32,000 bases of DNA, taken from assembly GCA_903936645.1 (NCBI GenBank), contig CAIZWI010000257.1, positions 1-32,000 of the forward strand, written 5' to 3'. Source of the DNA: an uncultured Verrucomicrobia subdivision 3 bacterium (GTDB lineage: Bacteria; Verrucomicrobiota; Verrucomicrobiia; Limisphaerales; UBA11358). A program made the translations under genes and the position numbers. A model generated the notes under the pieces. It ran no database searches and was not told the DNA's origin. It saw nothing but the letters and a program-made list of their open reading frames with translations. This document shows, in pieces, positions 8,643-23,813 of the stretch (positions are counted from its first letter, which is position 1; each line of letters starts with the position of its first letter).

Positions 8643-8886
8643 AAAAATGGCGCGACGGGGAATTTGGAGGGAGGCGGCAAAGGTGCGACCGGGTTGGATC
8701 CGAGCATGGGGCGAAAGTACGCGAAACTTCAGGCGTTCACTTTTTCATTTCAAAATGTCACAGAACACCGCCGCCGTCCGATCGGTCAGGGCGGAGGTAC
8801 CCGCCGCGGATGAGGCATGGGCGTCCGGCCCGAAAGGCAGTTGCTATTCAACCAATGAGCGATATAGGGGTATGGCAAATGGAAAA

Positions 8887-10260
8887 TTATTTTAACTGAA
8901 GCACGACGGCACTGGCGTGTGGAACCGGTAAATGAATCGAGCTGGAATGGATGGCAATTGGCTCGGCCAGTCGGGGGCTCCATTCGCCGGCCGCGGAAAC
9001 TTCGGCCCCGGCGAGAGTGACTTGAGCCTGGCTGGTGGCGGACGGGGCCGATAACCGGAAGGCTGCCCCCGAGGCAAAACCGGCCGGCAAGGTGACGGTG
9101 ACATCCGCGTCCTGGGCCAGGTCCTTGTTGATGATGGTTAGCCAGAGGGCTCCTTCCGGCCGCTTGGTGGCGTAAGCGGTCAGATTGAGATTACCGGGCG
9201 CGAGGGTGAGTTTTACCAAGTCACCCTGACCGGCGAGGGCAAAGGCCAAGAGGCCGTAATATTCGGGGCAGGCGTGGCAATGACCGCTGGCATCATGCAG
9301 GATGGGGGAATAATGACTGAGCCAGGCGTGCTGGTTGATGTCGGTTTCGAGATTGACCCCGGCGCAGCCGTGGGCGGCCAGGACAAAGAGACAATCCAAA
9401 CACCACAAGGCGGCGCCGAAGGTGTCGCTGACGTTGGTTTTGCCGCCGCCGGAGAAGGAGTTGACTTCATTGATGCGGTAGCCGACACCCTGCGCCTGGC
9501 TGGCGGCGTGGAGTTGGTCGAGGCGGTCCGCCCAGCGGGCATCGGGCGCCAGCAAGCAGGCGAGCGTGGCGTTGGGGTCGCTGGCGCCGCTGCGATAGTA
9601 ATGGTGGGTGAGCAGTTGAACGTCGTGCCCCTCGGTTTGCGCGAAGGCCAGCACCCAATGCAGGTTCCCGGCGACATCGGGTCCGGAAAGCCGGGCCTGG
9701 GGCAGCGCGGTGCGGAGGGCGGTACGGAACTGCTGATATGCGGCATAATAAGCGGCGTAATTTTTGAAGTGCGGCTGGAGGTCCACTTCGTTGCCGATTT
9801 CGAAGGAATGGAGCGTGCCACCGAGCGCGGCCGTCACGGCCCGGGCTTCGGTGACCGCCTCGGCGGGGGAGCCGGTGCCGAGGTTGAGCCCCCACATGAC
9901 CTGCCAGCCAGTGGCGCGGGCAAAGGCGGCCAGATCCCGCAGACAGGTTTGATTTATGGTGGTTAACCGTTCTTCGGGATTGACGATGGGCGGGCCATCG
10001 GGGACATAACGGGTGTGGTCGGAGATGTTGCCACCGATGCGAATCAAGCCGTGGGGGCTCAGCTGGCGATAGAGCCGGACCAGTTCATGATTTTGGGCGC
10101 TGAAATAACCGGGCTGGGCGGTGGCGGAGGTTTCATAGCCCAGACCCATGAAATCGGGTGCGATAGGGCTCACCACGGTTTGGGGGTCGACCTGCAGGGT
10201 GACGACGTTGGCGGGAGGTTCGGCGGCGGGGGCGGGGGCGCCAAGGAAGGCCATGGTCAA
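8887..10260 (-). CDS. glycoside hydrolase family 79 (beta-glucuronidase/heparanase-like)
   Basis: FEIGNEVDL is the acid/base GNE motif. YRINEVNSFSGGG is the nucleophile Glu motif (compare heparanase GETSSAYGGG). The (beta/alpha)8 domain is followed by a C-terminal beta-sandwich. The start is uncertain (TTG 10260, ATG 10254); see the finding. Confidence 0.75.
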   Translation of the reverse strand: MTMAFLGAPAPAAEPPANVVTLQVDPQTVVSPIAPDFMGLGYETSATAQPGYFSAQNHELVRLYRQLSPHGLIRIGGNISDHTRYVPDGPPIVNPEERLTTINQTCLRDLAAFARATGWQVMWGLNLGTGSPAEAVTEARAVTAALGGTLHSFEIGNEVDLQPHFKNYAAYYAAYQQFRTALRTALPQARLSGPDVAGNLHWVLAFAQTEGHDVQLLTHHYYRSGASDPNATLACLLAPDARWADRLDQLHAASQAQGVGYRINEVNSFSGGGKTNVSDTFGAALWCLDCLFVLAAHGCAGVNLETDINQHAWLSHYSPILHDASGHCHACPEYYGLLAFALAGQGDLVKLTLAPGNLNLTAYATKRPEGALWLTIINKDLAQDADVTVTLPAGFASGAAFRLSAPSATSQAQVTLAGAEVSAAGEWSPRLAEPIAIHSSSIHLPVPHASAVVLQLK

Positions 10261-10496
10261 GGCGGCCAGCCGCCGGAACAGGCGATAATAGAAACAAGGT
10301 TTGATGGGTCAGGAATAAGTCGTTTGGGGGGAAGGAACAAGTTTTTTTGGCAACGCCAGGCAGCGCGGCAAGACCGGGAGCAGGCACATTTCCGGATATC
10401 AGCACCCTTTAGCGGCGCATGGGGGGCGCAAATTCTAAAAATAATTCCGCTTTAGAGACTAGCGGGGGAACGGGCTCCGTTCTATTTTTTGGGCTC

Positions 10497-12431
10497 ATGA
10501 AATCACTTTTTGCCCTGGCTTGCGCCCTGATGGGTGCGATGCAGGTGGAGCTTTGGGCCGGTGATTCGCCATTAGCCGGAACGGTTCCACAAATAACCGA
10601 TGACCGGTCCGATGTATCCATCCTCAGGGACCGGGCAAAGCAAGTGGTCAAGGGCATCGGCTTTGAAATTCAAGCGGATGCCATCGGCTCAGGAAATCAG
10701 GGCCTGCAAAACGAACCGCTGGGTGTGCCGCATGATTTGGCGCCAGCCGAACGGCAGCGGCTGGCGGCGGAAATGCTGCATGGTTTCCGTTATTGCCGGC
10801 TGGCGGGCGGGCTGTACTGGCGCGGACTTGACGCCGATAAAAAGCACCTGCAACCGCGCTGGCCGGAACAGTTGGAGGAACTGCAGGCATTGCTGGAGGC
10901 GGCCGGGGTGGAGGGTTTGTCCTTCGAGTATTGGTCCCCGGCGCCCTATTGGAAAGGCGCGCAGGCTTTCGTGGGCGGGCGGGAAGGAGACCCCCAAAAC
11001 CGGCTTCGCTGCTTCGCGCCCGGCTTTGCGGAGGACGGGGTTTTTCATGGGGATACCAACCGTTTTCTGGCCGAGTTTGCGCAGGCGGTGGTCACGGACA
11101 TCCAAACGTTGAACCAGGCCGGACTGAAAGTTTCGCTGTTCGGCCTCCAAAACGAACCCGAGGTGAACCATGCCATTTATTCCTCGTGTGAGTACCCGGG
11201 CGGGGCCGCTTATGTTCAAGCGTTTACCGCCGTGGCGGGCGCGGTGCGCCGCCACGACCCGAACATTTTAATTTTTGCCGACACCTTCAACTCGTTTCCA
11301 AAACTCATTGCGGCGGGAACGAGAGATCCACGCGTGGCGGCGCTGCTGGATGCGTATGCGGTTCACATCGTCGGCACGAGCTCGGAGAAACCGCGCCAGG
11401 TCGCGGCGGAGATTTCCCAGAAGCTCCCGCCGCGCCCGTGGTTCCAGAACGAATACGAATATCTCACTGGCGCGGCAACGCCCGAGCGCTGCCTGAACAC
11501 GGTGCAGCACATCATGAATTCGTTCCAGCTGGCCGGCTGTCCGACGTGGTTTTGGATCCACGCGCTGAAACCGATTCAAAACGCCGAGGCCAGTGGCTAC
11601 TCGCTCGGTTTCTGGAGGTCGCGGCTGGCGCCGCAGCTTCCGCCCTCCGCCGAACAATACCGCCGGTGGCCGGGCGGGCCGGAGTTTTCGCTGCTGCCGG
11701 AACCGCTGAAGAAAATGGAGATGCTTTCGGTCAAACGCGGCAAGGCCGGCCACGGCATCGCGTGGAATTTTCTGGTGAACCAGCCGGTGAAAGTCTGGTT
11801 GCTGGCCGCGAACGGTGGCGAAGCCAGCCTCGACGCATCCTGGGAGCGGACAGAGCTAAGGACCCGGTGGGAGGGCGGGGGGGACCGGATTTTCACGCGA
11901 ACCTTTCCCAAGGGAAAGGTAGAAATCCCCGCGCCCGGCAGTCCCACGGTCGCCCACAGTGTTTTCGTGGAGCCAGCGGATGCGGCGGGGTTCAAAGTGG
12001 AGATCGGCATGAATCTGCCGATTGAAATTCGTTCGCAGGCGCGGGCGCTCGAACGCCAGGCCGCGGCGTTGGCGCCGGGTCATTGGATTTTCAACCCGTA
12101 CAACTGGAACGCGGTCGGGAGTTTCGTGAAGCGGATGCCGTGGGACAGCGTGGTGGTGGACATCGCCGAGAAACCTTACAATGCAGACGCGCGGGTGCTG
12201 GCCTTCCGGAAGCCGGACGGCAAGCTGACCATCGTGGTATCCAACCGCACGCCGGGCGAACACACCTTTGACATCAACACTGGCCGGCGCGACGCCGTGT
12301 TTCAAGGGGTTCGCTACACGCCAGAGGAGGCGGGAGCGAACACCCAGGGCAAGGCCAGGGGCACGGTGAGCGGGGAAAACATCACGCTGCGCCTGCCGCC
12401 CTGCGCCTGGGAATTTTGGGAGGAACAATAA
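10497..12431 (+). CDS. clan GH-A glycoside hydrolase, GH30-like
   Basis: ATG 10497 gives the signal peptide MKSLFALACALMGAMQ. Motifs YWSPAPYWKG, SLFGLQNEPEV (acid/base NEP) and WFQNEYEYL (candidate nucleophile) resemble GH30 glucosylceramidase/galactanase signatures. The family assignment is tentative. Confidence 0.55.
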   Translation: MKSLFALACALMGAMQVELWAGDSPLAGTVPQITDDRSDVSILRDRAKQVVKGIGFEIQADAIGSGNQGLQNEPLGVPHDLAPAERQRLAAEMLHGFRYCRLAGGLYWRGLDADKKHLQPRWPEQLEELQALLEAAGVEGLSFEYWSPAPYWKGAQAFVGGREGDPQNRLRCFAPGFAEDGVFHGDTNRFLAEFAQAVVTDIQTLNQAGLKVSLFGLQNEPEVNHAIYSSCEYPGGAAYVQAFTAVAGAVRRHDPNILIFADTFNSFPKLIAAGTRDPRVAALLDAYAVHIVGTSSEKPRQVAAEISQKLPPRPWFQNEYEYLTGAATPERCLNTVQHIMNSFQLAGCPTWFWIHALKPIQNAEASGYSLGFWRSRLAPQLPPSAEQYRRWPGGPEFSLLPEPLKKMEMLSVKRGKAGHGIAWNFLVNQPVKVWLLAANGGEASLDASWERTELRTRWEGGGDRIFTRTFPKGKVEIPAPGSPTVAHSVFVEPADAAGFKVEIGMNLPIEIRSQARALERQAAALAPGHWIFNPYNWNAVGSFVKRMPWDSVVVDIAEKPYNADARVLAFRKPDGKLTIVVSNRTPGEHTFDINTGRRDAVFQGVRYTPEEAGANTQGKARGTVSGENITLRLPPCAWEFWEEQ

Positions 12432-12435
12432 CTCC

Positions 12436-12528
12436 ATGGCCCGCAAAGTCCCTTATCTTCGCTGGATTCTGGCCCTGGCGCTGTTCATGGCGGCGTTTTT
12501 GAACTACGTGGACCGGAACGTGCTGGGC
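12436..12528 (+). pseudogene. 5' remnant (~31 codons) of an MFS transporter gene (hexuronate/sugar-acid transporter-like N-terminus)
   Basis: MARKVPYLRWILALALFMAAFLNYVDRNVLG starts 5 nt after the GH30-like stop. It matches the RW.IL.L.F....NY.DR..L pattern of MFS TM1. Beyond codon ~31 the frame runs antisense into the convergent DHDPS-family gene and loses all MFS character. Confidence 0.4.
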
Positions 12529-13421
12529 CGGGTGGCGAGGGCGGTTTGCAGGGTGGCGAGGGCGGCTTTGCGCTCGGCACCGGCCATGATGAGGCGCGGG
12601 GGGCGGACGCGTTCGTGGCCCATGCCGGTTTCCTGCTGCACGAGTTTGATGAGCTGCACAAACTTGGGCACGGTGTCCATGCGGAGCAAGGGCAGGAACC
12701 AGCGGTAGAGTTCCTCCGCTTGCTTTACCTTGCCCTGCGCGGCGTACTGGTAGAGGGCGACGGATTCGCGGGGGAAGGCGTTGACGAGGCCGGCGATCCA
12801 GCCGGTGGCCCCGGCGCGGATACCCTCGACGATGGCGTCGTCCACGCCCACGAGCAAGGCGAGGCGGTCGGCAATGAGGGCGCGGAGGGCGGTGACGCGG
12901 CGGACGTCGGTGCTGGATTCCTTGACGGCGGCGAGGTTGTCGTTTTCGGCGGCGAGCTCGGCGATTTGGGCCGGAAGATAATCGGTTTTGTAAGAGACGG
13001 GGTTGTTATACAACATGCACGAGAGGTTCGTGGCGCGGATGACGGCGGTGACGTGGGCTTTCATCTCGCGCCAGTCGCTGGTATACACATAGGGCGGCAG
13101 GACCATGAGGCCGGAGCAGCCGGCGGCGGCGGCGGCGCGGGCCAGGGCGACGGCCTCGGCGGTGGCCAGGGAGGCGATGCCGGCGACGACGGGACGGCCA
13201 TCCAGCGCGGCGACGAGGGTTTTGAGAATGGCGACTTTTTCCTCGAAGGCGAGGGTGGCGCTTTCGCCGAGGGAGCCCAGGGCGACGACGCCGTTACAGC
13301 CATTCTCCACGAGCCAGCGGCCGTGCTGGGCGACGAAGGCGTGGTCCACGGTGTAGTCGGCGTTGAAGGCGGTGGTCATGGCCGGGATGACGCCGGTCCA
13401 TTGCATGGGTTTGGTTTTCAT
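12504..13421 (-). CDS. DHDPS/DapA-family lyase, probable 1-pyrroline-4-hydroxy-2-carboxylate deaminase (LhpC/HypD-like)
   Basis: MKTKPMQWTGVIPAMTTAF..., GSLGESATL, and the Schiff-base lysine context NLAAVKESS. It is the last gene of the epimerase / D-amino-acid dehydrogenase operon. Start options are ATG 13421 or ATG 13406. Confidence 0.75.
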   Translation of the reverse strand: MKTKPMQWTGVIPAMTTAFNADYTVDHAFVAQHGRWLVENGCNGVVALGSLGESATLAFEEKVAILKTLVAALDGRPVVAGIASLATAEAVALARAAAAAGCSGLMVLPPYVYTSDWREMKAHVTAVIRATNLSCMLYNNPVSYKTDYLPAQIAELAAENDNLAAVKESSTDVRRVTALRALIADRLALLVGVDDAIVEGIRAGATGWIAGLVNAFPRESVALYQYAAQGKVKQAEELYRWFLPLLRMDTVPKFVQLIKLVQQETGMGHERVRPPRLIMAGAERKAALATLQTALATRPSTFRST

Positions 13422-13449
13422 GGATTTCAAAGGTTTTAGTAAAGGGAAT

Positions 13450-14709
13450 TCAGGCGTAACGGTCGGGAGAAAGCAGGGTCAAGTCAAGGGCGGGGCGTTC
13501 GCCGGCCAGGATTTGGGCGACGAGCCGGCCGGTGATGGGGGCGAGGCTGATGCCCATCATGGCATGGCCGGTGGCCAGGGTGAGGTTGGCCAGCCGGGCG
13601 GTGCGGCCGAGATAGGGCAGGCCATCGGGGGAACAGGGCCGGAGGCCGCGCCAGGGGGCGATGCCGGCAAAATCGGCGGGCGTGAAATCGGGGTAATAAC
13701 CGTTGACGGCATTGATAATGCCCTGCACGCGCCGGGGCTGGATTTGTTCGTTCAGCCCGGAAATTTCCATGGTGCCGCCAAAGCGCAGGGTGCCGCCCAG
13801 GGGGGTGACGGCCATGCGCGCCTCGGTGAAAATGGCGCAGATTTGGGGCAACTGGCGCGGTTGCGGCAGGGTCAGGCTGTAGCCTTTGCCGGCCTGGATG
13901 GGGATGCGCAAGCCCAGGTCGCGGGCGAGTCCCGGGGACCAGGAACCGCCGCAGAGGACGTATTCATCGGCAATCAATTCCCGGCCATCGGCGAGGCGCA
14001 CGTTTTGCAGGCGGCGGTCGGGTCCGGTGGTGCAGGCGGTGACTTCGGTGTCCCAATAAAACCGGGCACCGGCGGCGAGGACTTTGGTTTGCAGGGCGGC
14101 CAGCAAACGGTCGGGCTGGAGGTGGCAATCCTTGGGAAAATAAACGGCGCCGGCGACGGACATGCGCACACCGGGATCGAGGGCGGCGGTTTGCCGGGCG
14201 TCCAGAACCTCGGCGGGAATGCCGAGGGCCACAGCCTGGGCGGCGGTTTGGGCTTCTTCATCGAGTCCATGCTGGGTTCGGCAGAGCATGAGGAGGCCCT
14301 TTTTCACGAGGCCAAAGTCGTTATGGGGGAGGGCGGCGAGTTCCTCATAGGCGAGGCGGCTGGCGAGGTTTAAATCGCGGAGCAGCGGCGCGGCGCGGCG
14401 CACGTGGGCGGGGGTGGCGGCGCGCCAGAATTTATACAACCAGTCGAACAACTCGAAGGAGAGGCGGGGCTTGATGTAAAAGGGGGACTCGGGATTCCAC
14501 ATCCATTTGAGGCCCAAGGCGACCATGCCGGGGGCGGCGAGCGGGATGAAATGGCTGGGCACGATCATGCCGGCATTGCCCAGGGAACAGCCATCGCGCT
14601 GGGCGGAGCGGCGCTCGACGACGGTGACATCCCAGCCGCGCTGGGTGCAGTAATAGGCGGTGGACAGGCCGATGACGCCGCCGCCGATGATGAGGATGCG
14701 GCGGCTCAT
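13450..14709 (-). CDS. FAD-dependent oxidoreductase, D-amino-acid (D-hydroxyproline) dehydrogenase-like (DadA/LhpB-like)
   Basis: ATG 14709 gives MSRRILIIGGGVIGLSTAYY (GxGxxG followed by VVER). The DAO-family C-terminal block is LATGHAMMGISLAPITG. Confidence 0.85.
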   Translation of the reverse strand: MSRRILIIGGGVIGLSTAYYCTQRGWDVTVVERRSAQRDGCSLGNAGMIVPSHFIPLAAPGMVALGLKWMWNPESPFYIKPRLSFELFDWLYKFWRAATPAHVRRAAPLLRDLNLASRLAYEELAALPHNDFGLVKKGLLMLCRTQHGLDEEAQTAAQAVALGIPAEVLDARQTAALDPGVRMSVAGAVYFPKDCHLQPDRLLAALQTKVLAAGARFYWDTEVTACTTGPDRRLQNVRLADGRELIADEYVLCGGSWSPGLARDLGLRIPIQAGKGYSLTLPQPRQLPQICAIFTEARMAVTPLGGTLRFGGTMEISGLNEQIQPRRVQGIINAVNGYYPDFTPADFAGIAPWRGLRPCSPDGLPYLGRTARLANLTLATGHAMMGISLAPITGRLVAQILAGERPALDLTLLSPDRYA

Positions 14710-14730
14710 GGGTGCATTTGCGGAAACATC

Positions 14731-14790
14731 CAAACTCCAACCTCCAACCTCCAAAGAAGCACCAAGCTCCAATAATGAACATTAAAAGCC
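14731..14790 (+). repeat. CAA-rich dispersed repeat, copy A
   Basis: CAAACTCCAACCTCCAACCTCCAAAGAAGCACCAAGCTCCAATAATGAACATTAAAAGCC. It contains CTCCAAC x3 in tandem. The 3' part, CAAGCTCCAATAAT.AA, matches copy B at 16820-16837. Confidence 0.6.
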
Positions 14791-14969
14791 GGGTGATCCG
14801 GGGTTGATAGGTAATTCCAATTCACAACTATTCAATGGCTTACAATTTCAGTTTCTTAGGGCGGGACGCCCGCCAGGACGCTACGGCGGGATCGGCCGGG
14901 CCAGCACATCGGTGGTTTGGGGAAATTACGTTGCGGAATGGATTTCCTCGATTGGTTAACATAAACACC

Positions 14970-15908
14970 TCAACGAATGCCCCAGCAAAAGGGGTCGGTT
15001 TCATCCAGCAGCAGGGTGGCCTCGGAATTGACGAAGGCGCTGCCGGTGATGACCGGGATGATCTGGCCGGCGGCGCGATCGTGCCATTGATAAGTGCCGG
15101 CGAAGGTGCTGCCGAGAATGCTTTCCTGAATCCAGGTCGCGCCGGCGGCGAGTTTGCCATCGGCGGCGAGGCAGGCGAGCTTGGCACTGGTGCCGGTGCC
15201 ACAGGGGGAGCGGTCGTAGGCTTTGCCGGGGCACTGGACAAAATTGGAGGAATGGGCGCCGGGGGACACGGGCGGCCCGAAGAGTTCCACGTGGTCCACC
15301 TCGGGAAAGCCCTGGGCATTCACGGCCTGACGCACGCGCCAGCAATACTCGGTGAGGGCTTCGACATTGGCCAGGGCCAGGTTCTGGCCGTGCTGTTCCA
15401 CGAGGAAGAACCAATTGCCACCCCAGGCGACGTCGCCGGTGACGGGGCCGAGGCCCGGGACCTGGACGGTGACGGCCTGGTGGGCGCGCCAGGCGGGGAC
15501 GTTGGTGACGGAGACCTCGCCATTCGGATGCAAGGTGGCGGTGATGATGCCGACGGGGGTTTCGATTTTGTGCGTGCCCGGCGCGAGGCGGCCGGCATGA
15601 GCGAGGGTGACCATCAGACCGATGGTGCCGTGGCCGCACATGCCGAGCACACCGACATTGTTGAAAAAGATCACACCCGCGGCGCAGGACGGATCCTCCG
15701 GCTCGACAAGCAGGGCGCCGACGACCACATCGGAGCCGCGCGGTTCATTGACAATGGCGGAGCGGTAGTGATCGTAGTCGCGCTGAAACAGGGCGCGGCG
15801 GGCGGCGAGGGAGCCGCGACCGAGGTCGGGACCACCCTGCATGACGATGCGCGTGGGCTCGCCACCGGTATGCGAATCGATGACTTGAATCCGAATTAAT
15901 TTGCTCAT
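14970..15908 (-). CDS. 4-hydroxyproline 2-epimerase (proline racemase family, Cys/Cys type)
   Basis: ATG 15908 gives [22 protein letters not shown]. Both catalytic cysteines are present (GMCGHGTIG and [12 protein letters not shown]). It is adjacent to the D-amino-acid dehydrogenase and the DHDPS-family deaminase. Confidence 0.85.
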
Positions 15909-15943
15909 GGTTTGGGCACTTACTGCCGGCTCGTGCGTAAAAT

Positions 15944-15982
15944 AATGGCGAAAATTGGCGCGCGCGTCTTGTCTAATTGGCG
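15944..15982. promoter_or_regulatory. candidate operator: direct repeats AAT(T)GGCG in the divergent promoter region
   Basis: AATGGCG lies at 15944-15950, AATTGGCG at 15953-15960 and AATTGGCG at 15975-15982. The two perfect copies are 22 bp apart start to start. They sit between the epimerase start (15908) and the AraC-family start (16026). Confidence 0.3.
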
Positions 15983-16025
15983 AGCCTCGACTATTATTTC
16001 GGCATAAGGTAGCAATTGATTGTGC

Positions 16026-16847
16026 ATGACCCGGCCGCGCGCTGACATTAAATTTTTCTCCCAACTGGCGGAGCCCTTTACGGGCGAGGCGTTGTTTGAC
16101 TGCCTGGCGGACACGGTATTTTTCATTAAAAATCAGCGGGGGGAATATGTGGTGGTGAACCAGACGCTGGTGGCGCGGTGCGGCCGCCGCAACAAACTCG
16201 AACTATTGGGGCGGCGCGCGGACCAAGTGTTTCCCGCGCCATTTGGCACGAGTTACCGGGCGCAGGACGAGCGGGTGCTGCGCGGTGGCGGGGTGATCCG
16301 CAACCAGTTGGAGTTGCACTTCTACACGACGGGCGGGCGGGGCTGGTGCCTGACCAACAAACTGCCACTGTATAATCACGCGGGGAAAGTGGCCGGGCTG
16401 GTGGGGATTTCCCGGGACTTGCAGGCGGTGAACGAGGGCAGCGAGGATTATTCCAGCATCGCCCGGGTGGTGGGTTACATGCAGACGCGGTTTGAGGAGC
16501 CGCTGCGGGTGCGGGACCTGGCGAAAACAGCGGGGCTCTCGCCCTTCCAATTGGAACAGCGGCTGCGCAAAATCTTTCAACTGACGGCGGGGCAGTTGAT
16601 CCAAAAAATCCGGATGGATCATGCGGTGGAGCGGCTGCTGAGCACGGACGAGGCGATTGCGGAAATTGGCCTGCGCTGCGGATACTCGGATCAAAGTGCC
16701 TTTACCCGGCAGTTTCGCAAGGCGAGCGGGCTGTCGCCGCTGGAATACCGGAGGACGTTTGCGGTGGAAGGAGAGAAGGCAAACTTCAAAATCCAAACTT
16801 CAAAATCCAGAGAATATTCAAGCTTCAATATTCAATCCTCATCATGA
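16026..16847 (+). CDS. PAS-domain AraC-family transcriptional regulator
   Basis: The N-terminal PAS-like sensor reads [30 protein letters not shown]...[11 protein letters not shown]...[26 protein letters not shown]. The C-terminal AraC HTH pair reads [25 protein letters not shown]...[33 protein letters not shown]. Confidence 0.85.
16780..16843 (+). repeat. CAA-rich dispersed repeat, copy B
   Basis: CAAACTTCAAAATC is perfectly duplicated in tandem (16780-16793 and 16794-16807). It is followed by ...TTCAAGCTTCAATATTCAATCC, which is homologous to copy A. The repeat encodes the low-complexity tail ([22 protein letters not shown]) of the AraC ORF. Confidence 0.6.
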
Positions 16848-19561
16848 AACATACCGAGATGGTGAAATTTCCAACGGCCGTTGGCCTTCCCCTCACCCCG
16901 GCTCTCTCCCTTGGGGATCCGCCGTCGCTAAAGCTATGGCGGACGGGAAAAGGGAATGTTTCGCCGTTAGCAGGCCAGGCGGCGAGGAAATTCGTCGGAC
17001 GGTTTTATGTGGTTATCTGGTTATGGGCGAGCCTCACAAACGTCCACGCGCAGGAGGGCGGGGGCAATGGGGCGCGGGGGATTTATCGGGACCGGATTGA
17101 GCCGCACTGGTTTACGCAAGGCACGGACACGAACAGTGGTTTCTGGTACCGGCTGAATTTCGCGGGGGACAAACGGGAGTTTGTGCGGGTGGATGCGGTG
17201 AAGGGCACGCGGGCGCCGGCGTTTGATCACGGACGGGTGGCGCGGGCGCTGACCGAGTTGTTGCACCATCCGGTTCAGGCCGATTACCTGCCGGTGGAAT
17301 CGCTGACGTTTGCCCCGGATGGCAGCTCCGTGGTGCTGCACGGGGCGGGCGAGGATTGGACGCTGGATTTAGCGCATTACATGGTGTCGGACCGAGCGGC
17401 GAACCACGATGACGGGGCAGTGCTTACCCCGCTGGAGCAGGTGCATCCCTCGGCGGCGGAAGGCGAGGATACGACCATTATGCTGGTGAATCACCGGAAG
17501 GAGGCGGTCCGGGTGTATTGGGTAAACCCAGAGGGGGAGCAGATTGAATATGGGCGGCTGGAGGCGGGGGAGCGCCGGGAGCAGCACACGTTTACCGGGC
17601 ATGTCTGGCTGATCACAAGCCTGGCGGGGCGGCACTTGGGGGTGTTTGAGGCGGGGGCGAAAGCAAGCCTGGCGGTGGTGGAACCCCGCATGAGCGGCCC
17701 AGCCGCAGCGGTGCGACCCGCCCGCCGGCCGGCGGCGCCGGATTTTCGTTCGCCGGATGGCCGGTGGGATGCGGTGGTGCATCAGCACGATTTGTTTCTC
17801 CGGGAAGTGGCCACGGGCAAGGAATGGCCGCTGACCACAGGCGCGACGGAAACGAACAGTTATGCGCGGAACGAGGAATTTGCGCGCAGCATTGACATGG
17901 ATTATGAGCATGCGGATCCCACGGAGGCAACGGCGGAGGTTTATTGGTCGCCCGATTCGACCAAGGTGGTGGCGATGTGCCGGAAGCCGGGAACCAAGCG
18001 CCGGGTGTATTTAATCGAGTCCTCGCCGGAGGACCAGTTGCAACCCAAGCTGGCGTCGTACCCGTATCTCAAGCCCGGCGATGACGTGCCCATCCGCAAG
18101 CCGCATTTGTTTGACGTGATGACCCGGCAGGAAATTCCGGTGGCGGACACGCTCTTTCCCAATCCCTGGTCCACGGACGACCTGCGGTGGAGCGCGGACA
18201 GCCGCCGGTTCACCTTTGTGTACAATCAACGCGGGCATCAGGTACTGCGGATTCTGGGGGTGGAGGCCGCGACGGGAACGGTGAAGGCCATCGTGGATGA
18301 GCACAGTCCGACGTTTATTTGTTATTCCTCCAAATATTTGGCGGAATACCTGGAGGACACGGACGAGATCATCTGGATGTCGGAGCGCGATGGCTGGAAT
18401 CATTTGTATTTGTATGATGCCCAGAGCGGGCTGGTGAAAAACCAGATTACGAAGGGGGAATGGGTGGTGCGCAAGGTGGTGCAGGTGGATCGGGAACAGC
18501 GGCAGCTCTGGTTTGAGGCAGGCGGCATCCGGCCGGGTCAGGATCCGTATTATCTGCATTTGTGCCGGGTGAATTTTGATGGCACCGGCCTGGTGGTGCT
18601 GACCGAGGGTGACGGCACGCACACCGAGGCATTTTCGCCGGACCGGCGCTGGTTCATTGACACGTGGTCGCGGGTGGATTGTCCGCCGGTGAATGAATTG
18701 CGCCGGAGTTCTGATGGTCATTTGATGTGCGACCTGGAACGTGCCGACGTGCGGGAGTGGCAGGCGGCCGGGGGCCAGTTTCCGGAGCGCTTTGTGGCCA
18801 AGGGGCGGGACGGGGTGACGGATATTTACGGGGTGATCTGGCGGCCGAAGGCGTTCCACTGGTTCAGCAAATACCCGGTGATCGAGGATATTTACGCGGG
18901 GCCGCAGGATGCCTTTGTGCCCAAGAATTTCCACGCGCATTACAACGCCCAGCGGCTGGCCAACCGGGGGTTTGTGGTGGTGCAAATGGATGGCCAGGGG
19001 ACTTCCAACCGGTCGAAGAAGTTTCATGATTACTGCTGGCAAAACCTGGCAGACGCGGGGTTTCCTGACCGGATGGCGTGGATTCGCGCGGCGGCGGCGC
19101 GTTATCGGGCGCTGGATTTGTCGCGCGTGGGGCTGTACGGTACGTCGGCGGGCGGGCAGGATGCGCTGCGGGGTCTGCTGGACCACGGGGACTTTTACCG
19201 GGCGGGGGTGGCGGATTCCGGCTGCCATGACAACCGCATGGACAAGATTTGGTGGAACGAGCAATGGCTGGGCTGGCCGGTGGGCGACGCTTATGTGCAC
19301 AGTTCCAACGTGGTGGATGCGCCCAAGCTCCAGGGCGCCCTGCTGCTCATGTATGGGGAAATGGATCGCAACGTGGATCCTGCGAGCACGCTGCAGGTGG
19401 TGAATGCGCTGATCAAGGCCGGTAAAAATTTTGAACTGCTGGCGGTGCCGGGCGCGGGCCATGGGATTGCCGGCCTCCCGTATGGGCAGTTGCGGATAGA
19501 GGATTTTTTTGTGCGGCATTTTCTGGCGGGCGGCGGCACGAGCGCAGGTTTCGCGCACTAA
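16844..19561 (+). CDS. S9-family serine peptidase, dipeptidyl-peptidase IV-like (S9B), with an internal VHL-beta-like module
   Basis: The DPP-IV-type propeller region reads FRSPDGRW...YWSPDS...LRWSADSRRF...WMSERDGWNHLYLY. A possible double-Glu motif is YARNEEF. The catalytic Ser is in GLYGTSAGG, Asp in YGEMDRNV and His in GAGHGI. The start is uncertain: the signal-peptide-like RKFVGRFYVVIWLWASLTNVHAQE begins at residue ~48 counted from ATG 16844, and an alternative GTG lies at 17009. Confidence 0.85.
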   Translation: MKHTEMVKFPTAVGLPLTPALSLGDPPSLKLWRTGKGNVSPLAGQAARKFVGRFYVVIWLWASLTNVHAQEGGGNGARGIYRDRIEPHWFTQGTDTNSGFWYRLNFAGDKREFVRVDAVKGTRAPAFDHGRVARALTELLHHPVQADYLPVESLTFAPDGSSVVLHGAGEDWTLDLAHYMVSDRAANHDDGAVLTPLEQVHPSAAEGEDTTIMLVNHRKEAVRVYWVNPEGEQIEYGRLEAGERREQHTFTGHVWLITSLAGRHLGVFEAGAKASLAVVEPRMSGPAAAVRPARRPAAPDFRSPDGRWDAVVHQHDLFLREVATGKEWPLTTGATETNSYARNEEFARSIDMDYEHADPTEATAEVYWSPDSTKVVAMCRKPGTKRRVYLIESSPEDQLQPKLASYPYLKPGDDVPIRKPHLFDVMTRQEIPVADTLFPNPWSTDDLRWSADSRRFTFVYNQRGHQVLRILGVEAATGTVKAIVDEHSPTFICYSSKYLAEYLEDTDEIIWMSERDGWNHLYLYDAQSGLVKNQITKGEWVVRKVVQVDREQRQLWFEAGGIRPGQDPYYLHLCRVNFDGTGLVVLTEGDGTHTEAFSPDRRWFIDTWSRVDCPPVNELRRSSDGHLMCDLERADVREWQAAGGQFPERFVAKGRDGVTDIYGVIWRPKAFHWFSKYPVIEDIYAGPQDAFVPKNFHAHYNAQRLANRGFVVVQMDGQGTSNRSKKFHDYCWQNLADAGFPDRMAWIRAAAARYRALDLSRVGLYGTSAGGQDALRGLLDHGDFYRAGVADSGCHDNRMDKIWWNEQWLGWPVGDAYVHSSNVVDAPKLQGALLLMYGEMDRNVDPASTLQVVNALIKAGKNFELLAVPGAGHGIAGLPYGQLRIEDFFVRHFLAGGGTSAGFAH
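16871..16955 (+). other. structured segment: a perfect 14-nt palindrome plus an extended imperfect hairpin
   Basis: CCAACGGCCGTTGG lies at 16871-16884. The hairpin is TCCCTT(16907-12)..TCCGCC(16918-23)..loop..GGCGGA(16938-43)..AAGGGA(16950-55). It lies between the AraC stop and the peptidase signal-peptide-like segment. Confidence 0.45.
17456..17683 (+). other. VHL beta-domain-like module (residues ~205-280 of the peptidase)
   Basis: MLVNHRKEAVRVYWVNPEGEQIEYGRLEAGERREQHTFTGHVWLITS aligns without gaps to human pVHL 75-121, [47 protein letters not shown] (15/47 identical). The human sequence was recalled from memory. Confidence 0.6.
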
Positions 19562-19573
19562 GGCATAAGAATT

Positions 19574-21349
19574 ATGAAGTTCATCAGCATTTGCGGGATG
19601 TTTATCGCGCTGGCGTTGCCGGCGGGGGCGGGCACTCCAGCCGCGGCCGAGGGGAATAAGCTGACCGCGTATTTCCAGACGTATCTGGACGAAAACTTGC
19701 GCCAGCATCCGACGGATGCCTCGGGGCTGGGGGACCACCGCTTCGACGCGGCGCTGGAAGACATTTCCCCGGCGGCGCGGGCGGGCTGGGTGACTCTGGC
19801 AAAGCAAACGCTGGCGGAGCTGCCAAAACGGGTGGCTTACCAGGCGCTGTCGCGGGATGGCCAGATCGATTACGAAATTTTCCAGCACCAATTGCAAACG
19901 GAGCTGTGGCTGGCGAAAAACAGCCATCCCTTTGAGGAAGACCCGCGCACTTACGGCAGCTATTTGAATGACAGTGTTTATGGGTTGCTGACGCAATCGA
20001 CGCTGCCGCGGGAAACGAATGTGGCCCATTGCCTGGCCCGCATGGCGCAGTTTCCCCGGATTATTGCCACGGCCAAGGCCACCTTAACGCATCCGCCGCT
20101 GCCGATCTTGGAGACCGCCATACGGCAGAACCAGGGGGCGATCGGGTTTTACGAGGGGGATTTGTTTCAACTGGCGGGCGACACGGCGCAATTGGCCGGG
20201 TTAAAAGCGGCGGCGGCCGAGGTGGTCAGGGAGCTCAAGGATTACCAGGCGTTTCTCGAAGGGCCGCTGCGCGCCCGGGCCAATGGCGAATGGCGGCTGG
20301 GCCCGAAGAAATTCAAGGCGAAGCTGGACCTGGTGCTGGAGGCGGGGGAAAGTGCGGACGAAGTCCTGGCGGATGCGCGGGCGGAATTTGACCGGGTGCA
20401 ACGCGATCTCTACGTGGTTTCGCGGCAATTATGGAGCCAGTATTATCCGGCGGTGAATTTTCCGCCGGACGATGCGGCCGGCCGCCGGGAAACGATTACC
20501 CGGGTCATCCAGGCCGTGGACCAGGAACACGGCCAGCCGGAGGAATTGATCAACGAAGCGCGCGCCACGGTGACGGACATCAAACAATTCATTCACGCTC
20601 ATCATTACCTGAACCTGCCGGAGCCGGATCACTGCCAGGTGATAGAAATGCCGGAATTTCGCCGGGGCAACTCGCTGGCGTACCTGGCCCCCGCCCCGCC
20701 GCTCGACCCGGCGGCCGACAGTTTTTATGCGGTGAGTCCGCCGCCGGCCGACTGGACCCCGGCGCAAAAGACCAGTTTCCTGGAGGAATACAACCGGCAC
20801 ATGCTGAAGATCCTGACGATTCACGAGGCGTACCCGGGGCATTACGTGCAGCTCAACCGGGCGAATCAAAATCCCTCGCTGATCCGGCGCGTTTACCAAT
20901 CGGGTCCGTTCGTGGAGGGCTGGGCGGTTTACGGGGAGATCACGATGTTGAACGAGGGGTTTGGGCAGGGCGATTTGCGTCTGCGCCTGATGCAGCTCAA
21001 GTTCTACCTGCGCGCGGTGGCCAATGCGATACTGGATCACCAAATGCACTGCACGGAGCTGACGGATGCGGAGGCGATGCAATTTTTGGTGCGGGAGGCT
21101 TATCAATCCGAGGGCGAGGCCAAGTTGAAAGTGATTCGCGCCAAGCAAAGTTCGACCCAGTTAAGCACCTATTTTGTGGGGCGCATGGCGCATTACCGTT
21201 TGCACCAGCAAATGGAGCGCGAACTCGGGGCGCAATTTGATCTCAGCAAATACCACGAAGCGGTGCTCGCCAGTGGTTCGGTGCCCGTAAAATACCTGCC
21301 GGAACTCGTGCACCGCCGGCTTAACCCAAACCCCCAAACAACCCCATGA
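19574..21349 (+). CDS. DUF885-family protein (putative zinc metallopeptidase)
   Basis: The signal peptide is MKFISICGMFIALALPAGAG. The family-typical motif HEAYPGHY lies at about 20822-20845, followed by EGWAVYGE. The gene starts 12 nt after the peptidase stop. Confidence 0.8.
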   Translation: MKFISICGMFIALALPAGAGTPAAAEGNKLTAYFQTYLDENLRQHPTDASGLGDHRFDAALEDISPAARAGWVTLAKQTLAELPKRVAYQALSRDGQIDYEIFQHQLQTELWLAKNSHPFEEDPRTYGSYLNDSVYGLLTQSTLPRETNVAHCLARMAQFPRIIATAKATLTHPPLPILETAIRQNQGAIGFYEGDLFQLAGDTAQLAGLKAAAAEVVRELKDYQAFLEGPLRARANGEWRLGPKKFKAKLDLVLEAGESADEVLADARAEFDRVQRDLYVVSRQLWSQYYPAVNFPPDDAAGRRETITRVIQAVDQEHGQPEELINEARATVTDIKQFIHAHHYLNLPEPDHCQVIEMPEFRRGNSLAYLAPAPPLDPAADSFYAVSPPPADWTPAQKTSFLEEYNRHMLKILTIHEAYPGHYVQLNRANQNPSLIRRVYQSGPFVEGWAVYGEITMLNEGFGQGDLRLRLMQLKFYLRAVANAILDHQMHCTELTDAEAMQFLVREAYQSEGEAKLKVIRAKQSSTQLSTYFVGRMAHYRLHQQMERELGAQFDLSKYHEAVLASGSVPVKYLPELVHRRLNPNPQTTP

Positions 21350-22830
21350 CCACCGCTCCTGCCACCCCCGCCATCCCCGCCAAAGCCCATCCCCGCGGGC
21401 TCGCCACGCTGTTCTTCACCGAGATGTGGGAGCGGTTTAGTTATTACGGCATGCGCGCGCTGCTGGTGCTGTTCATGGTGGATGGCGCCCACGGCGGGCT
21501 GGGCATGACGGACCAAACGGCGACGGCGGTTTACGGCATTTACACGGCGTGCGTGTACCTCATGGCCCTGCCCGGCGGCTGGCTGGCGGACCGGATTTTG
21601 GGGGCGCAACGGGCCGTGTGGTACGGGGGGATTATTATTGCGCTGGGGCATTTCACGCTGGCCCTGCCCTTTCACTCCTCGTTTTATGTCGGGCTGATTC
21701 TGGTGGTGGTGGGGAGCGGCATCCTCAAGCCGAACATGACCTCCATGGTGGCGGATTTGTATCCCGAAGGCGGGTCGCGCCGGGACGCGGGGTTCACGAT
21801 TTTTTACATGGGCGTGAATTTGGGAGCGACCGTTGGACCGTTGATTTGCAGTTATCTGGGCGAGCATGTGAACTGGCACTATGGGTTTGGCGCGGCGGGT
21901 GTGGGGATGGTGTTGGGGCTGATCCAATTTCGGCTGACGCGGCAGGCGCTGGGCACGGCGGGCACGCGGCGGGGCAATGACCGGCCGTTGAATGCGGTGG
22001 AACGCTGGGGCATGATCGGCCTGGTGGCGGGGGTGGTCACCTTGCTGGGGTTGTGCCTGGGAGGCGTCGTGAGCGTGGATCCGGCTAGCATTGCCCATGC
22101 CATGACGAAGGTGATTGTGGGCATCGCCGCGCTGTTCTTCATATCGGTGTTCGTATTTGGCGGACTCAGCAGCGTGGAGAAACAACGCATGGGGGTGATT
22201 GTGGTGTTGTTTATCGCCTCGGCCATGTTCTGGGCAGGATTCGAACAGGCGGGCTCGTCCTTCAACCTCTTTGCGGAACGGTACACCGACCGGCAGCTCT
22301 CGTGGGTGCATTTTACCATTCCGGCGGGCTGGTTTCAGACATTGAACCCCATCTTTATTATTACCTTCGCGCCGTTCATGGCGTGGCTCTGGGTGCGGCT
22401 GGCCGTGCGGAATCTGGACCCGTCGATCCCGGTGAAATTTGCGTTTGGCTTGCTGCTGCTGGCGGGGGGTTTTCTGGTGATGACGGGCGCGGCCAAGGTG
22501 GTGGCGGCCGGGCACCTGGCCCTGCCCGGCTGGTTGCTGGCGACGTATTTCATTCACACGTTTGCGGAATTGTGCCTGAGCCCGGTGGGCTTAAGCTCGG
22601 TCACCAAGTTATCCCCGCGCAAATATGTGGGCCAGATGGTGGGCATCTGGTTTCTGGCGACATCCTTGGGAAATCTGATTGCCGGTCTGCTGGCGGGCGG
22701 GTTCAGCGCGGATCATTTGGAAGCGTGGCCGGGGCTCTACTTCAACATCGCCCTGATGCCGGCCATAGCCGGGGTGCTGCTGCTGGTGTGCGCCCGGCCG
22801 GTGAAAAAATGGATGGAAGGCGTGGTCTGA
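21346..22830 (+). CDS. POT/PTR2-family proton-dependent di/tripeptide transporter
   Basis: The PTR2 signature is present: LATLFFTEMWERFSYYGMRALLVLFM...GGWLADRILG...GHFTLAL. The ORF is a 494-aa polytopic protein. Its start overlaps the DUF885 stop (ATGA). Confidence 0.9.
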   Translation: MTTAPATPAIPAKAHPRGLATLFFTEMWERFSYYGMRALLVLFMVDGAHGGLGMTDQTATAVYGIYTACVYLMALPGGWLADRILGAQRAVWYGGIIIALGHFTLALPFHSSFYVGLILVVVGSGILKPNMTSMVADLYPEGGSRRDAGFTIFYMGVNLGATVGPLICSYLGEHVNWHYGFGAAGVGMVLGLIQFRLTRQALGTAGTRRGNDRPLNAVERWGMIGLVAGVVTLLGLCLGGVVSVDPASIAHAMTKVIVGIAALFFISVFVFGGLSSVEKQRMGVIVVLFIASAMFWAGFEQAGSSFNLFAERYTDRQLSWVHFTIPAGWFQTLNPIFIITFAPFMAWLWVRLAVRNLDPSIPVKFAFGLLLLAGGFLVMTGAAKVVAAGHLALPGWLLATYFIHTFAELCLSPVGLSSVTKLSPRKYVGQMVGIWFLATSLGNLIAGLLAGGFSADHLEAWPGLYFNIALMPAIAGVLLLVCARPVKKWMEGVV

Positions 22831-22939: not shown

Positions 22940-23737
22940 TCAAGGGGCCTTGTTGTTGTCATCCATGCCCATGTTCCAAACGTCCAGGAAACGGGTGATC
23001 TTCACCCACTCCACGTGGCCGTCACAGAAATTCATGCACGTGCCTGAGGATCCATGATTATTATCGGGATCCGGCCAGTTGTTGTGCAAGCTGCCGCCAA
23101 CGGAGGCGGTGTCATCGCCATCGGCCATGAGGAGAATGCGGGAAGGACCGGGCCGGGTGCCAGGCTGATACAACACGTTCGCGTAGCCGGTCAGGGAGTG
23201 CTCGGTTTTTTTCTCGCCGGTGCCGCTAAAGACCCCAAATATTTCATAGCTGGTGCCATAATTTTTGGTGTTTACCGCGTTGTTAGCCAAATCGACCACA
23301 ACGCGCTCGGTGGCGGATTGGGGCTTTAAGGCGGTGGTGGGCCGAATGGAATTCTCAGTCGCAGGGCAGCAATAACAACCGAAATTTCTGATGTAATTGG
23401 GATACAACCAGTTCGCATCGTCATCCCCCCCGGAGCGATCGCTTTTGGGGGTGGGAACGAAGGTGGGGGGGTTCCAGGTGGCCCCGCTCAAATTTCCATT
23501 ATTGTCATCGGCATAGAGGACGCTTCCCAAATCCAGTTGTTTGAGGTTGCTGAGACACCCGGTTTTTTTGGCGGCGGCTTTGGCCCGGGCCAGGGCGGGA
23601 AGCAGCATGGCGGCCAAAATGGCGATAATGGCGATCACCACCAGCAATTCAATGAGCGTAAAAGCCCGGTTTCGCGGGGACAATGACGTGGGCCGATGAC
23701 GGATTAGGATTGGGTTGTTGGGGGGCGGGGTGAACAT
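22940..23737 (-). CDS. prepilin-type N-terminal cleavage/methylation-domain protein with a C-terminal H-X9-DG-type motif (DUF1559-like pseudopilin)
   Basis: [30 protein letters not shown] is the type IV pilin-like leader and hydrophobic helix. The C-terminal motif reads [21 protein letters not shown]. The ATG at 23737 is preferred over the TTG at 23764. Confidence 0.85.
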
Positions 23738-23769
23738 AGTTGTTGGAGGAGGGCTGCGTAACAAGCAGG

Positions 23770-23795
23770 GCGGGCGGGGGTCACCCCCCGCCCGC
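23770..23795 (-). terminator. very stable GC hairpin between the giant gene and the pseudopilin-like gene (attenuator, terminator or processing site)
   Basis: GCGGGCGGGGG-TCAC-CCCCCGCCCGC is an 11-bp perfect stem with a 4-nt loop. It begins 19 nt after the giant-gene stop. The downstream minus-strand sequence CCTGCTTGTT is only weakly U-rich. Confidence 0.4.
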
Positions 23796-23813
23796 TGGCG
23801 AGCCGAGGTTTAA

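Follow-up and report, generated by a model that had tools for sequence, protein, structure and literature searches.

A divergent two-operon locus in a Verrucomicrobia subdivision 3 bacterium that probably harvests hydroxyproline from peptides

A stretch of 32,000 nucleotides from an uncultured Verrucomicrobia subdivision 3 bacterium (positions 1 to 32,000 of contig CAIZWI010000257.1, GenBank assembly GCA_903936645.1), referred to here as the window, contains a seven-gene locus organized as two divergent operons. The locus probably encodes a system that harvests hydroxyproline (Hyp) from Hyp-containing peptides. Judged by homology, the minus-strand operon is a Hyp catabolic module. The plus-strand run encodes a PAS-AraC regulator, an exported S9B serine peptidase carrying a VHL-type beta-domain, an exported DUF885 protein, and a peptide symporter of the POT family. 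This reading draws on the identities of the genes, their homology to the lhp cluster of Pseudomonas aeruginosa, conserved catalytic residues, the fold and conserved pocket of the VHL-type module, export signals, and the recurrent linkage of the genes in other genomes. The parts of the locus are as follows.

12504-13421, minus strand: DHDPS-family protein (PF00701, 188 bits)
13450-14709, minus strand: FAD-dependent DAO-family protein, a DadA-like flavoenzyme (PF01266, 232 bits)
14710-14969: 260-nt non-coding spacer between the flavoenzyme and epimerase genes
14970-15908, minus strand: 4-hydroxyproline 2-epimerase of the proline-racemase family (NCBIfam epimerase models, 423 bits)
15909-16025: 117-bp divergent control region between the two operons
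16026-16847, plus strand: LhpR-like PAS-AraC regulator (PAS_4 and HTH_18)
16844-19561, plus strand: exported S9B (DPP IV-like) serine peptidase (DPPIV_N, PF00930, and Peptidase_S9, PF00326)
17429-17719, plus strand: VHL beta-domain module, amino acids (aa) 196-292 of the peptidase (PF01847, 24.7 bits)
19574-21349, plus strand: exported DUF885 protein, by its sequence a probable zincin-like metallopeptidase (PF05960, 317 bits)
21346-22830, plus strand: POT/PTR2 proton-coupled di/tripeptide symporter (TIGR00924, 415 bits)

All seven genes were recovered at these positions from the open reading frame (ORF) listing and its translations. A 99.9% identical ENA contig (k141_101168), for which genes were called separately, encodes the same products, of 305, 419, 312, 273, 905, 591, and 494 aa. 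An earlier first-pass annotation, made from the sequence without database searches, had placed the peptidase, DUF885, and POT genes on one transcript because of their spacing. The 12-nt gap between the S9B and DUF885 genes and the ATGA overlap between the DUF885 and POT genes are as it described, but the regulator's stop and the peptidase's start also overlap by 4 nt (ATGA at 16844-16847, plus strand). The plus-strand run is therefore one of four contiguous genes rather than three, with successive junctions of 4, 12, and 4 nt. Terminator and promoter scans barely exceeded shuffled background and did not inform the operon ends. A scan of the whole window against Rfam gave no match, and neither the 260-nt spacer nor the control region holds a known RNA. 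The nearest genome loci bear the label Verrucomicrobia subdivision 3, and the homologues go under the names Limisphaerales or Verrucomicrobiota.

In the proposed mechanism, the extracytoplasmic S9B peptidase would hold a substrate Hyp in its VHL-type beta-sandwich and cleave after Pro or Hyp, the zincin-like DUF885 enzyme would trim the products, and the POT symporter would import the resulting di- and tripeptides. Cytoplasmic Xaa-Pro peptidases, possibly including an M24B enzyme encoded 5 kb away, may then free L-Hyp. The epimerase would convert L-Hyp to cis-4-hydroxy-D-proline, the DadA-like flavoenzyme would turn this into pyrroline-4-hydroxy-2-carboxylate, the DHDPS-like deaminase would yield alpha-ketoglutarate semialdehyde (alpha-KGSA), and an unlinked aldehyde dehydrogenase would complete the route to 2-oxoglutarate. 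The LhpR-like protein probably senses L-Hyp and would activate both operons from the shared 117-bp control region. Plant or algal glycoproteins rich in Hyp are as likely as collagen to be the natural substrates.

The catabolic assignments are anchored by the epimerase, which is 61% identical to P. aeruginosa LhpA and carries both motifs of the Cys/Cys catalytic pair (GMCGHGT and SPCGTGTSA). The NCBIfam epimerase models NF052296 and NF010577 each score 423 bits against it, 19-27 bits under their curated cut-offs (450 and 442), whereas the model for proline racemase reaches 213. In the PDB its best match is 2azp (PA1268; 1.5e-123), and its seven nearest relatives there, all of them closely homologous to PA1268/LhpA, were deposited as proline racemases or epimerases. 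Some of these, for example 4j9w, are known as 4-Hyp epimerases. Aligned over its full length with the DHDPS-family gene product of the P. aeruginosa lhp cluster, the DHDPS-like protein shows 38% identity. Its identity to Escherichia coli DapA is 28%, and it reaches 161 bits with the dapA equivalog TIGR00674 (cut-off 206). Aligned to DapA, it keeps the Schiff-base lysine (Lys161), with Ser in place of Arg138, Val in place of Tyr107, and Ser/Leu in place of Thr44/45. The first-pass annotation had read the minus-strand enzymes as steps 1-3 of the Hyp pathway, and the lhp comparison together with the PDB and NCBIfam matches bears this out. It had also named a proline racemase and a true DapA as the identities that would overturn the assignment. 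At the level of sequence both were discarded, the former on the 213-bit racemase model, the 2azp match, and the identity to LhpA, and the latter on the sub-cut-off TIGR00674 score and the replacement of Arg138 and Tyr107.

The flavoenzyme is a less direct case. Its best named model is a D-amino-acid dehydrogenase, it scores 271 bits with NF001933 (cut-off 383), and it is only 25% identical to LhpB, at which level orthology with LhpB was ruled out and an argument from non-orthologous displacement was used instead. Its best match in a plasmid collection, at 42.5% identity, comes from Spirosoma, where the matching FAD oxidoreductase belongs to a DHDPS-epimerase cluster. Among the neighbours of the epimerase in 80 metagenome contigs, a DadA-like enzyme (22 loci) never occurs together with the heteromeric type made of LhpB and an FAD/2Fe-2S subunit (13 loci). 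Such mutual exclusion is the pattern that would be expected if one had replaced the other at the same pathway step. On this argument, its family, and its position beside the epimerase, the DadA-like flavoenzyme is the probable cis-4-hydroxy-D-proline dehydrogenase of step 2. The published signature of the 4-Hyp pathway is an epimerase, a D-amino-acid oxidase (DAAO), a DHDPS-family protein, and an aldehyde dehydrogenase (PMC4113996).

The S9B peptidase matches the PDB entries 5yp1 (3e-40), 2d5l (8e-39), and 2ecf (1e-38), and its catalytic triad (Ser768, Asp841, and His873) is invariant in 121 sequences. The N-terminus resembles a signal peptide ending in VHA-QE, and the A-Q ending is present in all homologues. 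An extra N-terminal region of about 300 aa contains the VHL module, of roughly 85 aa, and the Pfam DPPIV_N match begins only at residue 302. The module scores 24.7 bits with PF01847 (gathering score 21), and nearly all homologues carry a precomputed match. When it was searched against the PDB with phmmer, only VHL chains fell below an E-value of 0.01, the next hit being a fibronectin at 0.2, and the alignment to VHL was ungapped across the pocket. An AlphaFold2 model built from a 36-sequence alignment has seven strands and a predicted local distance difference test score (pLDDT) of 86.6. In a Foldseek search of the PDB with this model, the top 50 matches were all pVHL, with template modelling (TM) scores of 0.69-0.76 and root-mean-square deviations of 1.3-4.7 A. 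Identity to pVHL is about 22-26%.

The residues that contact Hyp in pVHL have counterparts in the module: W226, Y236, T249, H253, and W255 correspond to VHL W88, Y98, S111, H115, and W117, with a Ser-to-Thr change at S111. All five are invariant in the 114 of 114 homologues that bear the module. The alpha-domain of pVHL with its BC-box, which binds elongin C, is absent; the match spans the beta-domain only (fragment 137-199), and the propeller follows directly. Because there is no alpha-domain, the peptidase module is a VHL-type beta-domain and not a VHL orthologue. From the model and the conserved pocket, it is a putative Hyp-binding site. Literature searches found no bacterial peptidase with a VHL-type domain and an intact Hyp pocket; the one related item was an in-silico note on a Litorilituus VHL-domain protein. 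Elsewhere, VHL-like domains are repeated 7-24 times in tandem in proteins of some 2000 aa and are fused with lipase_3, Big_1 or type IX secretion system (T9SS) tails, DM9 plus ankyrin, and TPR.

Downstream, the DUF885 protein has a visible signal peptide and an HEAYPGH motif at aa 417-423. The clan of DUF885 is Peptidase_MA (PMC12572635). Its PDB match, 3u24 (4e-76), is without an assigned function. His417, Glu418, His423, Glu448, and Glu455 are kept in 17 sequences at 16-78% identity. Hyp-linked DUF885 proteins fall into at least three subfamilies with 16-21% identity to the window protein, all with H-E-x3-G-H and two downstream Glu residues. Literature searches found neither a function for DUF885 nor a link between DUF885 and Hyp genes. 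The symporter is assigned to the POT family by TIGR00924 (cut-off 130) and PF00854 (219 bits), and its EMWERFSYYG near the N-terminus matches the ExxERFxYY signature. Its cargo would presumably be Hyp-containing di- and tripeptides, and the substrate specificities of the two peptidases are likewise predicted from their context and homology.

Linkage was followed from the peptidase and from the epimerase. The peptidase-centred scan took one genome per species and covered 80 loci, mainly from Verrucomicrobiota and Planctomycetota with some from Armatimonadota. Neighbours were grouped by unbiased clustering of all flanking ORFs. In both scans, clusters of shadow ORFs produced by the crude ORF caller were set aside. 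The recurrent neighbours of the peptidase were the epimerase (8 loci), DUF885 (7, plus a divergent one in L051), the flavoenzyme (6), the DHDPS-family gene (6-8), and POT (5). The other recurrent neighbours belonged only to large multi-copy families of the Planctomycetota-Verrucomicrobiota-Chlamydiota (PVC) bacteria, such as sulfatases, GFO/IDH oxidoreductases, ABC ATPases, and similar. In 8 of the 80 loci an epimerase gene lay no more than 10 kb from the peptidase, where at most about 0.35 would be expected for one copy per genome. The Poisson p-value is 4e-9 for the eight loci and 3e-5 if they are counted as five independent arrangements.

Hyp genes accompany the peptidase in Verrucomicrobiota, Planctomycetota, and Armatimonadota, in no fewer than five gene orders. 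One relative, L001 (CAZUBG010000018.1), has the same divergent arrangement as the window, with 73-81% protein identity. This contig is binned as 'uncultured Bifidobacteriaceae' and is probably mis-binned; a phage-integrase gene follows its POT gene. L002 is also divergent and has the catabolic genes and the peptidase, without DUF885 and POT, and is the closest genome relative of that kind. In it, at 3320-5710, a gene for a CstA carbon-starvation (peptide/pyruvate) transporter adjoins the DHDPS-like gene. The gene orders of six further loci (L004, L006, L039, L040, L048, and L051) are unlike that of the window. They include epimerase-DAO-S9B (L039), DHDPS..epimerase-DAO-S9B (L040), DUF885-S9B-x-DHDPS-x-epimerase-DAO (L048), and DHDPS-epimerase-DUF885-DAO-S9B (L051). 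In L039, L040, and L051 the flavoenzyme and peptidase genes share a strand, the peptidase gene coming immediately after.

The epimerase-centred scan of the 80 metagenome contigs returned the same partners. Beside the epimerase stood DAO (46 contigs), DHDPS (44), a heteromeric dehydrogenase subunit (13), DUF885 (10), an aldehyde dehydrogenase (10), GntR (9), PAS-AraC (6-7), POT (5), M24B (5), and S9B (3-4), and M14 and trypsin-like peptidases likewise recur there. DUF885 therefore accompanies the epimerase as often as the step-4 aldehyde dehydrogenase does (10 vs 10). No ABC transporter family was among the recurrent neighbours in these contigs. The neighbourhood comparison that the first-pass annotation had proposed thus finds recurrent linkage in both directions. 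Its suggestion that Hyp enters as a peptide gains support from the conserved association of the catabolic genes with S9B, DUF885, and POT, identical in L001 and reordered in six loci. Its remark that Hyp clusters elsewhere are tied to ABC or permease uptake holds for P. aeruginosa, in which an ABC importer follows lhpR. Overall, the earlier observation is confirmed and its interpretation supported, with caveats that concern the register of the peptidase, the absent step 4, and the substrate source.

In an alignment of 241 aa that spans both domains, the regulator has 48% identity to the AraC gene product encoded where LhpR lies in the P. aeruginosa lhp cluster. LhpR (PA1261), which has a PAS domain (PMC8694187), belongs to the AraC family and acts as an activator in response to L-Hyp (PMC6608401). 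In P. aeruginosa, the next genes after lhpR on the same strand encode an ABC amino-acid importer, and here the S9B, DUF885, and POT genes occupy the equivalent place. We infer that the two operons are co-regulated and that the effector is that of LhpR. Blocks of the control region (15909-16025) are kept with L001 and L002, e.g., TGGCGAAA, CGTCTTGT, and GGCATAAG. A promoter-like site lies at 15969-15997 on the plus strand, in the scan that barely rose above shuffled background. At the junction that holds the spacer of 14710-14969, L001 has some 50 nt and L002 a single nucleotide; in the window, the spacer carries GGAGGTTGGAGGTTGGAG repeats.

Hyp is abundant in the cell-wall glycoproteins of plants and algae and in collagen. 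Three genes near the locus are candidates for further parts of the system.

6133-7455, minus strand: M24B Xaa-Pro aminopeptidase (AMP_N and Peptidase_M24)
8887-10260, minus strand: GH79 beta-glucuronidase homologue (PDB 3vny, 4.5e-75)
10419-12431, plus strand: GH30C-like protein of 670 aa (GH30C domain, 27 bits)

The GH79 and GH30C-like genes are divergent and directly adjoin the Hyp operon. The former matches a GH79 beta-glucuronidase of Acidobacterium (3vny), and the latter has a weak GH30 C-terminal domain and no PDB homologue. Both GH30 and GH79 have been listed as arabinogalactan-protein machinery (PMC4454575). Together they make up the side-chain pair for these proteins. It may be speculated that the two proteins de-glycosylate Hyp-rich glycoproteins and belong to the system. 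Other glycosidases accompany related genes. A GH127 beta-L-arabinofuranosidase gene adjoins the S9B-VHL gene in L003, L047, and L069, and L084 has a GH43 gene between POT and the regulator. GH127 is described as specific for arabinose on the Hyp of extensins (PMC7263609, PMC10850190). A plasmid of Spirosoma oryzicola (NZ_CP089540.1; L163, 137496-156695) has the order SusD-SusC-AraC-DHDPS-Hyp epimerase-FAD oxidoreductase-GH127-GH127-amino acid permease-DUF885. S. oryzicola is a cultured Bacteroidota strain from rice grains, and the locus looks like a ready experimental model for extensin and Hyp use. L003, at 1190-20117 of a Limisphaerales metagenome-assembled genome, is a larger version of the peptidase/transporter module with all genes on one strand and no Hyp-catabolic gene within 10 kb: GH127, S9B without VHL, alpha/beta hydrolase, x, GH31, S9B with VHL, DUF885, POT, and DUF5695 (1409 aa). 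No collagenase (M9 or U32) was found in the window or in any annotated locus, and soils, peat, and lakes are the environments that the records give for the source metagenomes. Because glycosidases of the GH127, GH43, and GH79 types recur and no collagenase was seen, the data suggest that plant or algal Hyp-rich glycoproteins are at least as likely a source of Hyp as collagen. Since the glycosidases are not kept in the closest relatives, the glycoprotein source remains a lead.

The M24B enzyme, which has no visible signal peptide, is a cytoplasmic candidate for freeing Hyp from imported peptides. Homologues with 51-67% identity stand beside the epimerase in L087, L090, L098, and L121. The first-pass annotation had pointed to an Xaa-Pro aminopeptidase 5 kb to the left; the gene is there and recurs beside epimerases elsewhere, but it is not syntenic in close relatives. 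The pair formed by M24B and the adjoining threonine-aldolase gene is linked in none of the 80 peptidase-centred loci, and the case for M24B as a member of the system is weak. As this pair and the GH79/GH30-like pair are both absent from the 80 loci, neither is counted as a core part.

Several observations weigh against the peptide-harvesting reading. In about 70 of the 80 peptidase relatives, the flanking 10 kb contain no Hyp gene, so the association, though real, is facultative. The GH79/GH30-like pair is found in none of the 80 peptidase-centred loci, L001 and L002 included. As the first-pass annotation had stated, the window lacks the step-4 enzyme: no aldehyde dehydrogenase (Aldedh) was found among its Pfam-scanned ORFs, which included all those of sufficient length for one. 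In other loci it is encoded in the cluster, namely in L084, a close relative, in L158, and in eight further epimerase loci. The double-Glu motif of DPP IV anchors the substrate N-terminus and is described as essential for exopeptidase activity (PMC5807507). Glu208-Glu209 of PmDAP IV align, in a region of low identity, to Ile350-Asp351 of the window peptidase, and in the family column 350 is Ile or Val and column 351 is Glu, Asn, or Asp. Since the motif is not kept, the S9B enzyme may not be a dipeptidyl aminopeptidase, and the exopeptidase label is only putative. Of the earlier description of extracytoplasmic exopeptidases, the location is upheld by the signal peptides of the S9B and DUF885 proteins, and the exopeptidase part is not. 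The peptidase activity of the DUF885 family, although probable from its motif, is itself putative. Finally, the VHL-like domain is found in 5915 representative proteins (E<=1e-3) with many architectures, and its conserved aromatic residues could be structural.

These points lend themselves to other explanations. The two operons might be functionally separate, one for the catabolism of free Hyp under the LhpR-type regulator and the other, with S9B, DUF885, and POT, for general peptide scavenging, Hyp itself entering through an unlinked permease. The many S9B-VHL relatives without nearby Hyp genes would fit, as would L002, which has the catabolic genes and the peptidase without DUF885 and POT, and S9B, POT, and M24B are general peptide-utilization families. 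We nevertheless consider such independence quite improbable. Of all genes, the single-copy epimerase neighbours the peptidase most often, with the two arranged in at least five orders in three phyla; in three loci the flavoenzyme gene comes immediately before that of the peptidase; the epimerase-centred scan gives the same partners and no free-amino-acid ABC system; and, in the window, the regulator and peptidase genes overlap by 4 nt and the VHL pocket is kept. It is far less probable still that the minus-strand operon degrades proline or D-proline, or that its DHDPS-like gene is the dapA of lysine biosynthesis, with no Hyp specificity. The sub-cut-off epimerase models and the flavoenzyme's best named model would allow this, but the low racemase score, the identity to LhpA, the PA1268/LhpA-like PDB relatives, the sub-cut-off dapA model, and the replaced Arg138 and Tyr107 all speak against it, and the trio of epimerase, DAAO, and DHDPS is the published 4-Hyp signature (PMC4113996).

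Two further alternatives would leave the peptide-harvesting reading largely in place, and each of them is unlikely, if by no means negligible. In one, the system works as described on animal collagen or gelatin peptides with Gly-Pro-Hyp repeats instead of plant or algal glycoproteins, a source that the experiments suggested in the first-pass annotation take for granted. Collagen is the classic source of Hyp, the PDB matches include the prolyl tripeptidyl peptidase of Porphyromonas gingivalis (2d5l) and the DPP IV of Stenotrophomonas maltophilia (2ecf), the latter reported to cleave a 4-Hyp substrate (Nakajima 2008, as cited in PMC5807507), and the HypR regulon of Streptomyces coelicolor contains an M9 collagenase (PMC6608401). 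Neither the window nor the related loci contain an M9 or U32 collagenase, however; the additional neighbours are glycosidases of the Hyp-glycan type (GH127 in L003, L047, L069, and Spirosoma, GH43 in L084, and GH79 in the window), and the named source environments are soils, peat, and lakes. In the other, the VHL-like module is merely a structural or a carbohydrate- or protein-binding beta-sandwich inserted in the propeller, without Hyp recognition, in a locus that may still use Hyp-peptides. The breadth of the domain family, with its tandem arrays, lipases, and T9SS cargo, would suit this, as would the S9B proteins that stand beside epimerases without the module (the cited loci are L090, L158, and L003) and the weak conservation of the VHL His110 position across the wider family. 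Against it, all five Hyp-contacting pVHL positions are invariant in the peptidase family and are kept together in 227 of 359 VHL-like domains (from the 150 best-scoring of the 5915 representatives), the fold match is specific to pVHL, and the only recurrent single-copy neighbours are Hyp-catabolic genes.

The peptide-harvesting reading places the locus between several known systems. The catabolic half and the regulator belong to one of these. Like the P. aeruginosa lhp cluster (LhpA/B/C/G with LhpR and an ABC importer), the locus has the epimerase (61%), the DHDPS-family deaminase (38%), and the PAS-AraC regulator (48%), with an uptake module after the regulator on the same strand. Unlike it, S9B-VHL, DUF885, and POT replace the ABC uptake of the free amino acid, a DadA-like single protein (25% identical to LhpB) stands in for the heteromeric D-Hyp dehydrogenase LhpB/E/F, and the aldehyde dehydrogenase that is encoded in that cluster is absent from the window. 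In S. coelicolor, the HypR regulon (PMC6608401) likewise combines a Hyp catabolic operon with a secreted protease, and its alpha-KGSA dehydrogenase (SCO1871) is encoded away from the operon, as seems to be the case in the present system. However, its regulator is a GntR repressor, its M9 collagenase is encoded at a distant locus, and it has no peptide transporter, VHL module, or DUF885. This regulon, collagenase included, is a partial precedent for coupling Hyp catabolism to proteolysis (PMC6608401), as are the Bacilli in which peptidase genes adjoin t3HypD (PMC4113996). Literature searches found neither a physically linked S9B-VHL/DUF885/POT module nor Hyp-peptide loci.

The individual proteins have relatives of their own. 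With PmDAP IV, the S. maltophilia DPP IV, and the P. gingivalis prolyl tripeptidyl peptidase, the S9B enzyme shares the propeller, the alpha/beta-hydrolase domain, and the triad (1e-38 to 3e-40). It differs from known S9B peptidases in the extra region of about 300 aa with the VHL module and in the double-Glu motif that is not kept. The acceptance of Hyp at P1 by the S. maltophilia DPP IV is reported through a reference in PMC5807507. The human pVHL beta-domain, which recognizes Hyp in HIF-alpha, shares the fold and the positions of the Hyp pocket, with Ser changed to Thr, whereas the module here lacks the elongin-binding alpha-domain, is embedded in an exported bacterial serine peptidase, and is only a putative Hyp binder. 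The HypBA1/HypBA2 (GH127/GH121) system of Bifidobacterium longum resembles L003, L047, and L069, with GH127 beside the peptidase relatives, and the Spirosoma plasmid, with GH127 beside the DHDPS-epimerase-DAO trio and a DUF885 gene. In contrast, the bifidobacterial system imports sugars and has no link to Hyp catabolism, and the window has GH79 and GH30C-like genes and no GH127.

Described bacterial Hyp pathways begin with the free amino acid, and the locus offers a lead to entry at the level of peptides, through exported peptidases and a POT symporter. It also provides a first functional context for the large DUF885 family, which is linked to Hyp epimerases as tightly as the step-4 enzyme is, and it points to PVC bacteria that consume Hyp-rich glycoproteins in soils and lakes. 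If the VHL module binds Hyp, it would be a non-eukaryotic case of the recognition mode that operates in oxygen sensing and is exploited by proteolysis-targeting chimera (PROTAC) drugs, and it could serve as an affinity reagent for Hyp-peptides. A broader proposal, which we regard as tentative and rather doubtful, is that the VHL beta-domain is a widespread microbial 'hydroxyproline reader' that tethers the exported peptidase to Hyp-rich (glyco)proteins, that DUF885 is a dedicated Hyp-peptide metallopeptidase, and that these two with POT form an undescribed peptide route into the Hyp pathway. Were this true, the Hyp recognition of animal oxygen sensing would reuse an older module for nutrient capture.

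The rest of the window holds features that lie outside the locus. At position 7585, the window has one extra G relative to the ENA contig k141_101168, which throws the 3' end of the threonine-aldolase-like gene (7425-8507, minus strand) out of frame. The resulting ORF of 540 aa runs 570 nt into the M24B gene with a nonsense tail rich in Arg and Pro, and the extra G is either a sequencing error or the mark of a fresh pseudogene. Further left, a gene for a PD-(D/E)XK protein (PDDEXK_3; 3042-3695, minus strand) lies in the window's sole stretch of low GC content (0.50 vs about 0.60-0.65). The gene interrupts a sugar-modification cluster (GT2, DegT aminotransferase, and GFO/IDH oxidoreductase), and its reading frame overlaps the oxidoreductase ORF at the start called for the latter. 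To the right of the locus, an ORF of 2041 aa (22940-29939, minus strand) has no Pfam domain and a faint UCP036055 match, and is followed by a prepilin-type N-methyl protein on the same strand. The pairing of such a large ORF with a prepilin-type N-methyl protein is typical of PVC bacteria. The GC skew is positive in every 1-kb bin of the window from 1 to 32000 (0.04-0.25), whatever the strand of the genes.

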